Below, in pieces: positions 5,407 through 37,299 of a stretch of DNA of 64,000 nucleotides (its first letter is position 1; every line of letters starts with the position of its first letter). This stretch comes from Escherichia coli (GTDB taxonomy: Bacteria > Pseudomonadota > Gammaproteobacteria > Enterobacterales > Enterobacteriaceae): the NCBI RefSeq assembly GCF_003018255.1, contig NZ_CP027440.1; one strand, 5' to 3'. The notes under the pieces are model-generated. The model was given only the letters and a program-made list of their open reading frames with translations. It ran no database searches and was not told where the DNA came from. The translations under genes were made by a program, and so were the position numbers.

Positions 5407-7869
5407 ATGCGAGTGTTGAAGTTCGGCGGTACATCAGTGGCAAATGCAGAACGTTTTCTGCGGGTTGCCGATATTCTGGAAAGCAATGCCAGGCAGGGGC
5501 AGGTGGCCACCGTCCTCTCTGCCCCCGCCAAAATCACCAACCACCTGGTGGCGATGATTGAAAAAACCATTAGCTGCCAGGATGCTTTACCCAATATCAG
5601 CGATGCCGAACGTATTTTTGCCGAACTTTTGACGGGACTCGCCGCCGCCCAGCCGGGGTTCCCGCTGGCGCAATTGAAAACTTTCGTCGATCAGGAATTT
5701 GCCCAAATAAAACATGTCCTGCATGGCATTAGTTTGTTGGGGCAGTGCCCGGATAGCATCAACGCTGCGCTGATTTGCCGTGGCGAGAAAATGTCGATCG
5801 CCATTATGGCCGGCGTATTAGAAGCGCGCGGTCACAACGTTACCGTTATCGATCCGGTCGAAAAACTGCTGGCAGTGGGGCATTACCTCGAATCTACCGT
5901 CGATATTGCTGAGTCCACCCGCCGTATTGCGGCAAGTCGTATTCCGGCTGATCACATGGTGTTGATGGCAGGTTTCACCGCCGGTAATGAAAAAGGCGAA
6001 CTGGTGGTGCTTGGACGTAACGGTTCCGACTACTCCGCGGCGGTGCTGGCTGCCTGTTTACGCGCCGATTGTTGCGAGATTTGGACGGACGTTGACGGGG
6101 TCTATACCTGCGACCCGCGTCAGGTGCCCGATGCGAGGTTGTTGAAGTCGATGTCCTACCAGGAAGCGATGGAGCTTTCCTACTTCGGCGCTAAAGTTCT
6201 TCACCCCCGCACAATTACCCCCATCGCCCAGTTCCAGATCCCTTGCCTGATTAAAAATACCGGAAATCCTCAAGCACCAGGTACGCTCATTGGTGCCAGC
6301 CGTGATGAAGACGAATTACCGGTCAAGGGCATTTCCAATCTGAATAACATGGCAATGTTCAGCGTTTCTGGTCCGGGGATGAAAGGGATGGTCGGCATGG
6401 CGGCGCGCGTCTTTGCAGCGATGTCACGCGCCCGTATTTCCGTGGTGCTGATTACGCAATCATCTTCCGAATACAGTATCAGTTTCTGCGTTCCACAAAG
6501 CGACTGTGTGCGAGCTGAACGGGCAATGCAGGAAGAGTTCTACCTGGAACTGAAAGAAGGCTTACTGGAGCCGCTGGCGGTGACGGAACGGCTGGCCATT
6601 ATCTCGGTGGTAGGTGATGGTATGCGCACCTTGCGTGGGATCTCGGCGAAATTCTTTGCCGCGCTGGCCCGCGCCAATATCAACATTGTCGCCATTGCTC
6701 AGGGATCTTCTGAACGCTCAATCTCTGTCGTGGTAAATAACGATGATGCGACCACTGGCGTGCGCGTTACTCATCAGATGCTGTTCAATACCGATCAGGT
6801 TATCGAAGTGTTTGTGATTGGCGTCGGTGGCGTTGGCGGTGCGCTGCTGGAGCAACTGAAGCGTCAGCAAAGCTGGTTGAAGAATAAACATATCGACTTA
6901 CGTGTCTGCGGCGTTGCCAACTCGAAGGCTCTGCTCACCAATGTACATGGCCTTAATCTGGAAAACTGGCAGGAAGAACTGGCGCAAGCCAAAGAGCCGT
7001 TTAATCTCGGGCGCTTAATTCGCCTCGTGAAAGAATATCATCTGCTGAACCCGGTCATTGTTGACTGCACCTCCAGCCAGGCAGTGGCGGATCAATATGC
7101 CGACTTCCTGCGCGAAGGTTTCCACGTCGTCACGCCGAACAAAAAGGCTAACACCTCGTCGATGGATTACTACCATCTGTTGCGTCATGCGGCGGAAAAA
7201 TCGCGGCGTAAATTCCTCTATGACACCAACGTTGGGGCTGGATTACCGGTTATTGAGAACCTGCAAAATCTGCTCAATGCAGGTGATGAATTGATGAAGT
7301 TCTCCGGCATTCTTTCTGGTTCGCTTTCTTATATCTTCGGCAAGTTAGACGAAGGCATGAGTTTCTCCGAGGCGACCACGTTGGCGCGGGAAATGGGTTA
7401 TACCGAACCGGATCCGCGAGATGATCTTTCTGGTATGGATGTGGCGCGTAAACTATTGATTCTCGCTCGTGAAACGGGACGTGAACTGGAGCTGGCGGAT
7501 ATTGAAATTGAACCTGTGCTACCCGCTGAGTTTAACGCCGAGGGTGATGTTGCCGCTTTTATGGCGAATCTGTCACAGCTCGATGATCTCTTTGCCGCTC
7601 GTGTGGCGAAGGCCCGTGATGAAGGAAAAGTTTTGCGCTATGTTGGCAATATTGATGAAGATGGCGTCTGCCGCGTGAAGATTGCTGAAGTGGATGGCAA
7701 CGATCCGCTGTTCAAAGTGAAAAACGGCGAAAACGCCCTGGCCTTCTATAGCCACTATTATCAGCCGCTGCCGTTGGTGCTGCGCGGATATGGTGCGGGC
7801 AATGACGTTACAGCTGCCGGTGTCTTTGCCGATCTGCTACGTACCCTCTCATGGAAGTTAGGAGTCTGA
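5407..7869 (+). CDS. thrA: Bifunctional aspartokinase I / homoserine dehydrogenase I
   Basis: 820-aa product [17 protein letters not shown]...; start at the conserved ATG rather than the in-frame upstream extension from 5365. Confidence 0.98.
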
Positions 7870-10607: not shown

Positions 10608-10627
10608 TGCCGGATTGCCATCCGGCA
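10608..10627. terminator. Palindromic hairpin between convergent yaaX and yaaA (putative bidirectional terminator)
   Basis: Perfect inverted repeat TGCCGGAT-tgcc-ATCCGGCA in a 39-bp intergenic gap; no strong U-tract. Confidence 0.4.
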
Positions 10628-10639
10628 TTGACTGCAAAC

Positions 10640-19123: not shown

Positions 19124-20254
19124 ATGGCTAAGCAAGATTATTACGAGATTTTAGGCGTTTCCAAAACAGCGGAAGAGCGTGAAATCAAAAAGGCCTACAA
19201 ACGCCTGGCCATGAAATACCACCCGGACCGTAACCAGGGTGACAAAGAGGCCGAGGCGAAATTTAAAGAGATCAAGGAAGCTTATGAAGTTCTGACCGAC
19301 TCGCAAAAACGTGCGGCATACGATCAGTATGGTCATGCTGCGTTTGAGCAAGGTGGCATGGGAGGCGGCGGTTTCGGCGGCGGCGCAGACTTCAGCGATA
19401 TTTTTGGTGACGTTTTCGGCGATATTTTTGGCGGCGGACGTGGTCGTCAACGTGCGGCGCGCGGTGCTGATTTACGCTATAACATGGAGCTCACCCTCGA
19501 AGAAGCTGTACGTGGCGTGACCAAAGAGATCCGCATTCCGACTCTGGAAGAGTGTGACGTTTGCCACGGTAGCGGTGCAAAACCAGGTACACAGCCGCAG
19601 ACCTGTCCGACCTGTCATGGTTCTGGTCAGGTGCAGATGCGCCAGGGTTTCTTTGCCGTGCAGCAGACCTGTCCACACTGTCAGGGCCGCGGTACGCTGA
19701 TCAAAGATCCGTGCAACAAATGTCATGGTCATGGTCGTGTTGAGCGCAGCAAAACGCTGTCCGTTAAAATCCCGGCAGGGGTGGACACTGGAGACCGCAT
19801 CCGTCTTGCGGGCGAAGGTGAAGCGGGCGAGCATGGCGCACCGGCAGGCGATCTGTACGTTCAGGTTCAGGTTAAACAGCACCCGATTTTCGAGCGTGAA
19901 GGCAACAACCTCTATTGCGAAGTCCCGATCAACTTCGCTATGGCGGCGCTGGGTGGCGAAATCGAAGTACCGACCCTTGATGGTCGCGTCAAACTGAAAG
20001 TGCCTGGCGAAACCCAGACCGGTAAGCTGTTCCGTATGCGCGGTAAAGGCGTCAAGTCTGTCCGCGGTGGCGCACAGGGTGATTTGCTGTGCCGCGTTGT
20101 CGTCGAAACACCGGTAGGCCTGAACGAGAAGCAGAAACAGCTGCTGCAAGAGCTGCAAGAAAGCTTCGGTGGCCCAACCGGCGAGCACAACAGCCCGCGC
20201 TCAAAGAGCTTCTTTGATGGTGTGAAGAAGTTTTTTGACGACCTGACCCGCTAA
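19124..20254 (+). CDS. dnaJ: Co-chaperone DnaJ (Hsp40)
   Basis: 376-aa product [38 protein letters not shown]..., J-domain, G/F-rich region, four CxxCxGxG zinc-finger repeats. Confidence 0.99.
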
Positions 20255-20260
20255 TCTCCC

Positions 20261-20290
20261 CAAAAGCCTGCCCGTGGGCAGGCCTGGGTA
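20261..20290. terminator. Hairpin terminator shared by convergent dnaJ and hokC transcripts
   Basis: GCCTGCCC-gtg-GGCAGGC hairpin with an A-run on the + strand, giving a U-run after the hairpin on the hokC strand. Confidence 0.65.
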
Positions 20291-20357
20291 AAAATAGGGT
20301 GCGTTGAAGATATGCGAGCACCTGAAAAGTGGCGGGGATCACTCCCCGCCGTTGCTC

Positions 20358-20510
20358 TTACTCGGATTCGTAAGCCGTGAAAACAGCAACCTCCGTCTGG
20401 CCAGTTCGGATGTGAACCTCACAGAGGTCTTTTCTCGTTACCAGCGCCGCCACTACGGCGGTGATACAGATGACGATCAGGGCGACAATCATCGCCTTAG
20501 GCTGCTTCAT
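20358..20510 (-). CDS. hokC: Hok/Gef family type I toxin HokC (50 aa)
   Basis: MKQPKAMIVALIVICITAVVAALVTRKDLCEVHIRTGQTEVAVFTAYESE: single TM helix plus conserved C-terminal motif. Confidence 0.9.
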   Translation of the reverse strand: MKQPKAMIVALIVICITAVVAALVTRKDLCEVHIRTGQTEVAVFTAYESE

Positions 20511-20567
20511 TGCTCTCTTCTCCTTGACCTTACGGTCAGTAAGAGGCACTCTACATGTGTTCTGCAT
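20358..20567 (-). CDS. mokC: MokC, overlapping reading frame that mediates hokC translation
   Basis: 69-codon frame MQNTCRVPLTDRKVKEKRA... running into hokC in the same frame. Confidence 0.7.
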   Translation of the reverse strand: MQNTCRVPLTDRKVKEKRAMKQPKAMIVALIVICITAVVAALVTRKDLCEVHIRTGQTEVAVFTAYESE

Positions 20568-20615
20568 ATAGGGGGCCTCGGGTTGATAGTAAAATATCAC
20601 TCGGGGCTTTTCTCT
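20555..20615 (+). ncRNA. sokC: Putative Sok antisense RNA (sokC) overlapping the mokC start
   Basis: Placed by homology of position with the K-12 hokC/sokC locus; exact 5'/3' ends not determinable from sequence alone. Confidence 0.45.
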
Positions 20616-21095
20616 ATCTGCCGTTCAGCTAATGCCTGAGACAGACAGCCTCAAGCACCCGCCGCTATTATATCGCTCTCTTTAACCCATTCTGTTTTAT
20701 CGATTCTAATCCTGAAGACGCCTCGCATTTTTATGGCGTAATTTTTTAATGATTTAATTATTTAACTTTAATTTATCTCTTCATCGCAATTATTGACGAC
20801 AAACTGGATTATTTTTGAAGTATTGGCCTAACAAACATCGCCGACTGACAACAAATTAATTATTACTTTTCCTAATTAATCCCTCAGAAATCCTGACCTT
20901 AAGCTATGATTATCAGGGCTTAGGGTCACACGTCAGCGCTTACAGCCGTCAAAAACTCATCTCATCACTGATGACGCAAATCCTTCAATGCCTCGTAAAA
21001 AGCGAATTATTCCTACACTATAATCTGATTTTAACGATGATTCGTGCGGGGTAAGATAGTAAAAACGATCTATTCACCTGAAAGAGAAATAAAAA

Positions 21096-22262
21096 GTGAA
21101 ACATCTGCATCGATTCTTTAGCAGTGATGCCTCGGGAGGCATTATTCTTATCATTGCCGCTATCCTGGCGATGATTATGGCCAACAGCGGCGCAACCAGT
21201 GGATGGTATCACGACTTTCTGGAGACGCCGGTTCAGCTCCGGGTTGGTTCACTCGAAATCAACAAAAACATGCTGTTATGGATAAATGACGCGCTGATGG
21301 CGGTATTTTTCCTGTTAGTCGGTCTGGAAGTTAAACGTGAACTGATGCAAGGATCGCTAGCCAGCTTACGCCAGGCTGCATTTCCAGTTATCGCCGCTAT
21401 TGGTGGGATGATTGTGCCGGCATTACTCTATCTGGCCTTTAACCATGCCGATCCGATTACCCGCGAAGGGTGGGCGATCCCGGCGGCTACTGACATTGCT
21501 TTTGCACTTGGTGTGCTGGCGCTGTTGGGAAGTCGTGTTCCGTTAGCCCTGAAGATCTTTTTGATGGCTCTGGCTATTATCGACGATCTTGGGGCCATCA
21601 TTATCATCGCATTGTTCTACACTAATGACTTATCGATGGCCTCTCTTGGCGTCGCGGCTGTAGCAATTGCGGTACTCGCGGTATTGAATCTGTGTGGTGT
21701 ACGCCGCACGGGCGTCTATATTCTGGTTGGCGTGGTGTTGTGGACTGCGGTGTTGAAATCGGGGGTTCACGCAACCCTGGCGGGGGTAATTGTCGGCTTC
21801 TTTATTCCTTTGAAAGAGAAGCATGGGCGTTCTCCAGCGAAGCGACTGGAGCATGTGTTGCACCCGTGGGTGGCGTATCTGATTTTACCGCTGTTTGCAT
21901 TTGCTAATGCTGGCGTTTCACTGCAAGGCGTCACGCTGGATGGCTTGACCTCCATTCTGCCATTGGGGATCATCGCTGGCTTGCTGATTGGCAAACCGCT
22001 GGGGATTAGTCTGTTCTGCTGGTTGGCGCTGCGTTTGAAACTGGCGCATCTGCCTGAGGGAACGACTTATCAGCAAATTATGGCGGTGGGGATCCTGTGC
22101 GGTATCGGTTTTACTATGTCTATCTTTATTGCCAGCCTGGCCTTTGGTAGCGTAGATCCAGAACTGATTAACTGGGCGAAACTCGGTATCCTGGTCGGTT
22201 CTATCTCTTCGGCGGTAATTGGATACAGCTGGTTACGCGTTCGTTTGCGTCCATCAGTTTGA
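21096..22262 (+). CDS. nhaA: Na+/H+ antiporter NhaA
   Basis: 388-aa membrane [33 protein letters not shown]... Confidence 0.98.
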
Positions 22263-22321: not shown

Positions 22322-23227
22322 ATGAGCATGTCTCATATCAATTACAACCACTTGTATTACTTCTGGCATGTCTATAAAGAAGGTTCCGTGGTTGGCGCAG
22401 CGGAGGCGCTTTATTTAACACCACAAACCATTACCGGACAGATTCGGGCGCTGGAAGAGCGCCTGCAAGGCAAATTATTTAAGCGCAAGGGACGTGGCCT
22501 CGAGCCCAGCGAGCTGGGAGAGCTGGTCTATCGCTATGCCGATAAAATGTTCACCTTAAGCCAGGAAATGCTGGATATCGTCAACTATCGCAAAGAGTCC
22601 AACTTATTGTTTGATGTTGGTGTGGCAGATGCACTTTCCAAACGTCTGGTCAGCAGTGTTCTGGATGCCGCAGTTGTGGAAGACGAGCAGATCCATCTAC
22701 GCTGTTTCGAATCGACGCACGAGATGCTTTTAGAGCAGTTGAGTCAGCATAAACTGGATATGATCATCTCTGACTGTCCGATCGATTCCACTCAGCAGGA
22801 AGGGCTGTTTTCCATGAAAATTGGCGAATGTGGTGTCAGTTTCTGGTGCACTAACCCACTACCAGAAAAGCCGTTTCCTGCCTGTCTTGAAGAGCGTCGT
22901 TTACTTATTCCGGGGCGTCGCTCAATGTTGGGGCGTAAGCTATTAAACTGGTTTAACTCCCAGGGCTTGAACGTCGAAATTTTGGGTGAGTTTGATGATG
23001 CTGCGTTGATGAAAGCCTTTGGGGCGACGCATAACGCTATTTTCGTTGCACCTTCGCTTTACGCTAATGATTTCTATAACGATGACTCGGTTGTGGAGAT
23101 AGGCCGTGTTGAGAACGTGATGGAAGAGTACCACGCGATTTTTGCCGAAAGGATGATTCAGCACCCTGCAGTACAGCGTATCTGCAATACAGACTATTCT
23201 GCGCTGTTTACTCCAGCTTCAAAATAA
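22322..23227 (+). CDS. nhaR: LysR-type transcriptional activator NhaR
   Basis: 301-aa product [46 protein letters not shown]... with HTH. Confidence 0.97.
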
Positions 23228-23270
23228 ACATTTGTACTTTGCAGGCCGAATTTTGGCCTGCAGATGGATA

Positions 23271-33307: not shown

Positions 33308-36529
<3,222 letters not shown>

Positions 36530-37214: not shown

Positions 37215-37299
37215 TCGCCGGATGCGATGCTGGCGCATCTTATACGGCCTACGGTTCCTTTCCAGCCAGGTCGGATAAGGCGTTTACGCCGCATCCGGA
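37215..37299. repeat. REP/BIME palindromic units between caiF and caiE
   Basis: CGCCGGATGCGATGCTGGCGCATCTTATACGGCCTACG plus inverted AGGTCGGATAAGGCGTTTACGCCGCATCCGG. Confidence 0.85.

Follow-up and report, generated by a model that had tools for sequence, protein, structure and literature searches.

The closest described relatives of the locus reported here are the hok/mok/sok system of plasmid R1 together with flm of plasmid F, the hokC (gef) locus of Escherichia coli K-12 and the hokC/sokC locus of strain ECOR24. For R1, the mechanism of hok and its tac/ucb switch have been described (PMC9841398). For the chromosomal gene, a 2012 paper states, citing Pedersen and Gerdes 1999, that ECOR24 carries hokC, and in contrast presents K-12 gef as having IS186 downstream, which is thought to disrupt the fold-back inhibition (fbi) element and the mRNA processing (PMC3562002). 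A 2020 survey reported IS-free hokC, hokE and hokA in the AIEC strain NRG857c (PMC7232551), and a 2025 paper describes hokA, hokC and hokE of K-12 as inactivated by IS elements (PMC12214031). Wild-type hokC loci were described in Pedersen and Gerdes 1999 (Mol Microbiol 32:1090), which PMC3562002, PMC7232551 and PMC12214031 cite, and in the descriptions given by the citing papers the ECOR24 form has the usual fbi element and mRNA processing. An uninterrupted hokC locus has already been known since 1999, and it is the common form.

We analysed a 64-kb stretch of DNA (64,000 nucleotides, called the window below), which is E. coli chromosome and matches K-12 MG1655 from about position 4,636,581, over the numbering origin and past 50,000 (the end of the K-12 sequence used in the alignment), with 94.6-98.6% identity per block. 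Its dnaJ ORF runs to 20254 and nhaA begins at 21096; between them, positions 20255-20672 of the dnaJ-hokC-nhaA spacer hold, on the minus strand, a hokC/mokC/sokC type I toxin-antitoxin locus that is complete. Outside the IS element of K-12 the synteny is kept, with 97-98% identity. The locus is very probably the wild-type, ancestral E. coli form of hokC/mokC/sokC, whose activity would follow from homology with R1. Its features are as follows.

20262..20287, minus strand: terminator hairpin of the hokC mRNA, GCCUGCCC..GGGCAGGC and then UUUU, the predicted 3' end (sequence, MFE folds, identical in E. fergusonii)
20297..20309, minus strand: fbi element CUUCAACGCACCC, mRNA nt 352-364 (pairing with nt 1-12, invariant in 10 E. 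coli strains and E. fergusonii)
20331..20350, no strand assigned: post-stop GC hairpin of the hokC mRNA and empty IS186 hot spot, with the core GGGGATCACTCCCC at 20334-20347 (K-12 junctions, opposite-orientation junctions, genome counts, paralogue hairpins)
20358..20510, minus strand: hokC coding sequence, Hok/Gef toxin of 50 aa (ORF list, Pfam HOK_GEF, K-12 SNP comparison, allele counts)
20358..20567, minus strand: mokC leader ORF of 69 aa, in frame with hokC, L2Q relative to K-12 (K-12 annotation transfer, open frame)
20520..20525, minus strand: hokC Shine-Dalgarno AAGGAG, mRNA nt 136-141 (sequence, same in K-12)
20525..20553, plus strand: presumed sokC promoter, TTGACC, 17-nt spacer, CACTCT (position relative to the K-12 sokC start, same in K-12)
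20559..20617, plus strand: sokC antisense RNA gene, ending in a terminator hairpin (K-12 sokC annotation transfer)
20576..20579, minus strand: mokC Shine-Dalgarno GAGG, mRNA nt 82-85 (sequence, pairs with the ucb region in the full-length fold)
20603..20609, minus strand: ucb-like box AAGCCCC, mRNA nt 52-58 (fold prediction)
20649..20660, minus strand: tac element and 5' end of the hokC mRNA, GGGUGCUUGAGG (Rfam model position 1, pairing with fbi, invariant in E. coli and E. fergusonii)
20667..20672, minus strand: hokC promoter -10 box TATAAT, 6 nt from the predicted 5' end (sequence, start of the conservation between E. coli and E. fergusonii)

An earlier note, made from the letters of this DNA, had claimed that the dnaJ-hokC spacer is only about 100 bp and lacks the IS186 found in K-12, and that the hokC ORF, the mokC frame, the sokC region and a 3' hairpin with U-tract are all present. 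Both claims held: the spacer measures 103 bp, counted to the hokC stop codon at 20358-20360 (minus strand), the K-12 alignment shows IS186A at this place, and every component was recovered from the ORF list, the K-12 transfer and the folds. Compared by description, ECOR24 has the same chromosomal gene, which lies between dnaJ and nhaA in the window, with no IS186 and with fbi and terminator still attached, while the window allele bears a rare H4P change. K-12 hokC (gef)/mokC/sokC (sof) (b4412/b0018/b4413) shares the mokC frame, the sokC region and the -10 box with the window, but within its post-stop hairpin it contains IS186A (annotated length 1,345 bp), which separates fbi and terminator from the gene, and its HokC and MokC differ (H4P, L2Q). 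The R1 and F systems, represented here by an IncF locus (L003), have in common with hokC the 5' tac, a mok leader ORF, a Hok/Gef toxin, a GC hairpin after the stop codon followed by UUUUCAGG, an fbi just 5' of the terminator and a similar transcript length (about 400 nt for hokC), as well as a ucb and a Sok target at the mok start, both of which are predicted features in hokC. They differ in that the proteins share 44% identity and in that the plasmid mok is in another frame, whereas mokC is in the hokC frame; besides, hokC is chromosomal, so the plasmid-stabilisation role is not directly applicable to it.

The HokC translation is MKQPKAMIVALIVICITAVVAALVTRKDLCEVHIRTGQTEVAVFTAYESE (ORF 20358-20510). 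It matches Pfam PF01848 HOK_GEF with E = 8.2e-24 over model positions 1-42 of 42 and is 98% identical to K-12 HokC, with residue 4 alone different, and it is thus a small hydrophobic toxin of the Hok/Gef family. The mokC leader overlaps it as an open frame of 69 codons, with its ATG at 20567 and GAGG 8 nt upstream. Rfam RF01794 matches 20508-20660 on the minus strand with 118.8 bits. Although the family is named 'sok antitoxin', its match lies on the hok-sense strand and stops at the hok AUG. What it describes is the leader of the hok mRNA and not the Sok RNA, so strand calls made from RF01794 need care.

On the opposite strand, the 5' tail of sokC is complementary to the mokC start region. 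Relative to K-12, sokC has 3 SNPs, two of which are common to other E. coli strains, while at the third K-12 is the odd one out. Its predicted fold has -23.6 kcal/mol compared with -21.6 for K-12, and the terminator hairpin is kept. The putative sokC promoter is a weak match to consensus with a weak -10 box (CACTCT), and in the region upstream of the sokC start the window has the K-12 sequence.

We set the 5' end of the hokC mRNA at 20660, which is position 1 of the Rfam model and 6 nt from TATAAT, and the 3' end near 20262, giving a predicted transcript of about 400 nt. In the full-length fold, nt 1-12 pair with nt 352-364 with pair probabilities of 0.94-1.0, which is the tac/fbi pairing of hok mRNAs. 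In each of four intact plasmid paralogues, too, the 5' end pairs best with a stretch directly 5' of the terminator, and the tac/fbi pairs of the plasmid paralogues show two compensatory changes, C-G to U-A and U-A to G-C. The MAFFT alignment of the 5' end and 3' UTR of the five paralogues put the hokC fbi out of register, and the pairs were tabulated by hand. For the hokC duplex of 5' 14-mer and 3' UTR, the energy by itself is not significant (34 of 300 shuffles reach it), so the support for tac/fbi comes from position, conservation and covariation.

In the full-length fold, the partner of the ucb-like box is the mokC Shine-Dalgarno region (GAGG, nt 82-85). When the RNA is cut to 340 nt, its 5' end is predicted to re-pair with the ucb-like box, and in the predicted folds of intermediate truncations (346-358 nt) it takes a weaker, G-U-rich partner at nt 334-345 instead. 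These folds are suggestive of a tac/ucb switch step in the hokC mRNA, and the predicted switch agrees with that described for R1 (PMC9841398). Of the fold-back elements whose presence the earlier note had left to be checked, fbi and tac are found in the locus, and ucb is there as a predicted box.

A scan of the locus found no consensus promoter for hokC or sokC, and no good -35 box for hokC; its sole plus-strand promoter match (20642-20671) and its sole terminator match (20416-20428, inside the hokC coding sequence) are at chance level. The hokC terminator, whose hairpin proper is at about 20264-20287 on the hok strand, was not called by the scanner, as it is followed by four U against a threshold of five. 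These misses are likely due to the lack of a hokC -35 box beside the perfect TATAAT, the weak sokC -10 box and the terminator with four U. Ten E. coli strains showed no variation in tac, fbi, hairpin and terminator, and E. fergusonii almost none. Between the two species, the conserved stretch has a sharp edge at the -10 box and extends across the 3' UTR and the terminator. The hokC promoter is far more variable than the transcript: strains Z1323HEC0067 and R8 have a strongly divergent allele directly upstream of the -10 box (window 20673-20711), and in strain EC5502 TATAAT has become TCTAAT (window 20671).

The palindrome GGCGGGGATCACTCCCCGCC is located at 20331-20350. Work on the lon promoter hot spot reportedly gives the IS186 target as a G-run, a short spacer and a C-run, and GGGGATCACTCCCC has this form with a spacer in the range of 3-6 nt. 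It is the sole GGGG-N3-6-CCCC motif within the 64-kb window, where chance alone would give about 2.35 such motifs, so one motif is not statistically unusual. The K-12 junctions (marked by a slash) read ...GGCGGGGATCACTCCC/ATAAGCGC...GCGCTTAT/GGGATCACTCCCCGCC, or in longer form ...GTGGCGGGGATCACTCCC/ATAAGCGC...(IS186A)...GCGCTTAT/GGGATCACTCCCCGCCG..., so the palindrome, which the earlier note had proposed as an IS186 target, is the exact insertion point of IS186A in K-12. GGGATCACTCCC flanks IS186A on both sides in K-12 and is present as a single copy in the window, where GTGGCGGGGATCACTCCCCGCCG also occurs once; the single unduplicated target copy means that the IS186 site is empty. Other genomes also use this site with a target-site duplication. 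Strains YZ22MPE54 and 1000C-3 were confirmed to have IS186 in the opposite orientation. The target duplication was read in these two and in K-12, and it is the same in all three. With IS186 in both orientations, there were at least two independent insertions at the hokC site. Compared with the hot spot at the lon promoter (SaiSree et al. 2001, J Bacteriol 183:6943), hokC has a target of the same G-run/spacer/C-run form (GGGGATCACTCCCC), a 10-12 bp duplication and both orientations; the lon hot spot is a promoter, whereas at hokC it is a structured part of a toxin mRNA. Strain 1000C-3 (L015, 2776-4148) has, in addition to IS186 in the hairpin, an IS150 on the other side of the gene at about window 20585, inside the sokC/hokC leader.

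Besides being an IS target, the palindrome is the conserved post-stop-codon hairpin of hok-family mRNAs. In the MFE fold of the hokC mRNA it forms a hairpin 10 nt past the stop codon. An equivalent hairpin (a G-run, a short loop, a C-run and then UUUUCAGG-like sequence) is found in the hok paralogues of IncF, IncI2, K. aerogenes IncFII and IncHI2 plasmids, where it lies 8-17 nt past the stop codon and the stems differ in a compensatory way. All hok paralogues examined have it. IS186 was found inside the equivalent hairpin in K-12 hokE (K-12 607300-609700), in a hokD-like locus of an IncY plasmid (L016, 680) and in a hok gene of a Salmonella IncHI2 plasmid (L021, 684), of which L020 is the uninterrupted homologue. 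L016 and L021 had been candidates for intact paralogues and were dropped, both being cut by IS186. Together with hokC, where both orientations occur and about 30% of E. coli genomes are affected, these loci make up the set of repeated hits. We take K-12 to contain three copies of IS186, in which case two of the three lie in hok hairpins. The fbi is on the dnaJ side of the IS186 site, and the K-12 insertion therefore severs fbi and terminator from the gene.

To describe how common each state is, we used 5,426 complete E. coli genomes and counted a site as uninterrupted when at least 80% of 20150-20750 was present in one piece.

Uninterrupted site: about 3,791 of 5,426 genomes (about 70%)
IS186 junction in the K-12 orientation: 710 of 5,426 genomes (13%)
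IS186 junction in the opposite orientation: 957 of 5,426 genomes (18%)

In the remaining genomes outside the uninterrupted class, the match breaks at window 20335. Among these complete genomes, uninterrupted hokC is the majority state. E. fergusonii also has an uninterrupted dnaJ-hokC-nhaA region with the same arrangement and with identical hairpin, tac and fbi, which indicates that the empty state is ancestral.

The alignment to MG1655 that the earlier note had called for revealed six single-base differences in 20255-20660.

20255: directly past the dnaJ stop codon
20325: 3' UTR, between hairpin and fbi
20500: HokC H4P
20563: MokC L2Q, also in the 5' tail of Sok
20573: sokC
20588: sokC

None of the six is in tac, ucb, the Shine-Dalgarno sequences or fbi, nor upstream of the sokC start, and so none touches the presumed sokC promoter or the activation elements. 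The alleles at 20325, 20563 and 20588 are common to other strains; at 20573, and also in the hokC -35 region at 20692, K-12 alone deviates among ten strains; 20500 and 20255 are private to the window allele in this ten-strain sample.

Some differences from K-12 were also observed elsewhere in the window. In the 3' half of nhaR (window 22435-23217) the identity falls to 83-89%, in contrast to 96-99.7% for the segment from hokC to 5' nhaR and about 98% for the dnaK/dnaJ block, and this half looks like a divergent or recombinant allele ending at the nhaR-rpsT spacer. In that spacer, K-12 19610-20762 (IS1A and about 330 bp of flank) corresponds to only about 53 bp in the window (23217-23270), so the window is without the K-12 insertion sequence there too. 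The yaaX-yaaA gap is about 100 bp longer in K-12 (5560-5662) than in the window (10619-10629), which may be a small repeat-element insertion or deletion, and the caiF-caiE intergenic region has a small indel (window 37243-37290, K-12 34753-34767).

The residue 4 difference noticed in the earlier note is real: HokC reads MKQPKAM... in the window and MKQHKAM... in K-12, owing to one A-to-C change on the hok strand at 20500 (codon CCT). The 61-mer around codon 4 is found exactly in 4 of the 5,426 complete genomes, and nearly all others are one base off. The P4 protein occurs on 645 contigs in a large collection, which means that a clone carries the allele. E. fergusonii and nearly all E. coli have His at this position, and the E. 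fergusonii residue indicates that H4P is derived. Residue 4 is outside the Pfam HOK_GEF match, IncF plasmid Hok reads MKLPRSS... with Pro at position 4, and the base change shifts the predicted mRNA fold by 4 base pairs. We infer that H4P is tolerated. Elsewhere in the gene, the Tyr47 codon (20370-20372, minus strand) sits in CUUACGAA (20367-20375), which is intact here. It resembles the motif in the anticodon loop of tRNA-Arg that is associated with A-to-I editing. Edited hok transcripts have been reported, among them hokC of K-12 at about 9% (PMC12214031).

By homology with hok/sok of plasmid R1, we infer that the window locus is transcribed, that its mRNA is processed and controlled by Sok, and that its product is toxic. 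From the weak promoter (TATAAT, 20672-20667), a transcript of about 400 nt would start at 20660 and reach the terminator near 20262, and pairing of its 5' end (tac) with fbi near the 3' end would produce a closed form, in which the mokC ribosome-binding site is held by the ucb box and neither translation nor Sok binding takes place. Slow trimming from the 3' end would strip fbi, upon which the 5' end would re-pair with ucb and expose the mokC start region. The short-lived SokC (20559-20617, plus strand) would then bind this region and lead to mRNA decay, while in the absence of SokC, translation of mokC would drive translation of the HokC membrane toxin. IS186 in the hairpin, as in K-12 and about 30% of E. 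coli, parts fbi and terminator from the gene; the window site has never been occupied.

Other readings of the site itself are conceivable. The palindrome lies in the 3' flank of dnaJ and its motif is expected by chance at the rate given above, which would fit a chance GC-rich inverted repeat or a part of the dnaJ terminator, unrelated to hokC and used by IS186 incidentally; yet no U-tract follows it in the dnaJ direction, it is predicted to fold within the hokC mRNA, and plasmid hok paralogues have at the corresponding place a hairpin of the same form, with UUUUCAGG-like sequence after it and with compensatory stem differences, so we hold this reading to be very improbable. It is just as hard to believe that the empty site is secondary, IS186 having once been present and later excised precisely with restoration of a single target copy. 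The element is frequent at this site and many lineages have been exposed to it, but precise excision removing exactly one copy of the duplication is rare, the hairpin is unblemished and identical to the one in E. fergusonii, and with the uninterrupted form being the majority and common to E. fergusonii, parsimony favours the ancestral state.

The locus might also be intact in sequence but functionally silent, a conserved inert relic in which H4P weakens HokC or expression is too low to kill. H4P is derived and confined to 4 of the 5,426 complete genomes, the hokC and sokC promoters both match consensus weakly, and N-terminal changes can matter, as K2E in R1 Hok abolished detectable protein in a published screen (PMC9841398). 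On the other hand, position 4 varies among toxic paralogues, with Pro in plasmid Hok, and is outside the Pfam core; the presence of the P4 allele on 645 contigs shows that it persists in a successful clone; every regulatory element is the same as in the majority E. coli allele; and the whole transcript including its UTRs is visibly constrained back to E. fergusonii. A silent locus is thus unlikely in our view, and the wild-type, ancestral hokC/mokC/sokC locus is the reading we prefer. We would give rather little weight to the idea that the repeated IS186 hits on hok hairpins reflect, beyond target fit, selection silencing hok toxins or co-evolution of IS and toxin, or, separately, that HokC P4 alters potency or membrane insertion in its clone.

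In conclusion, the survey puts numbers on a known picture by counting the three states of the site. What is mildly new is limited to this population count and to the finding that IS186 recurs in one and the same hairpin across several hok paralogues; the practical value is small and no new question is opened. Because K-12 is atypical at hokC, work on chromosomal hok genes in persistence, phage exclusion or genome stabilisation should use strains like the one analysed here, which have kept fbi and terminator joined to the gene.
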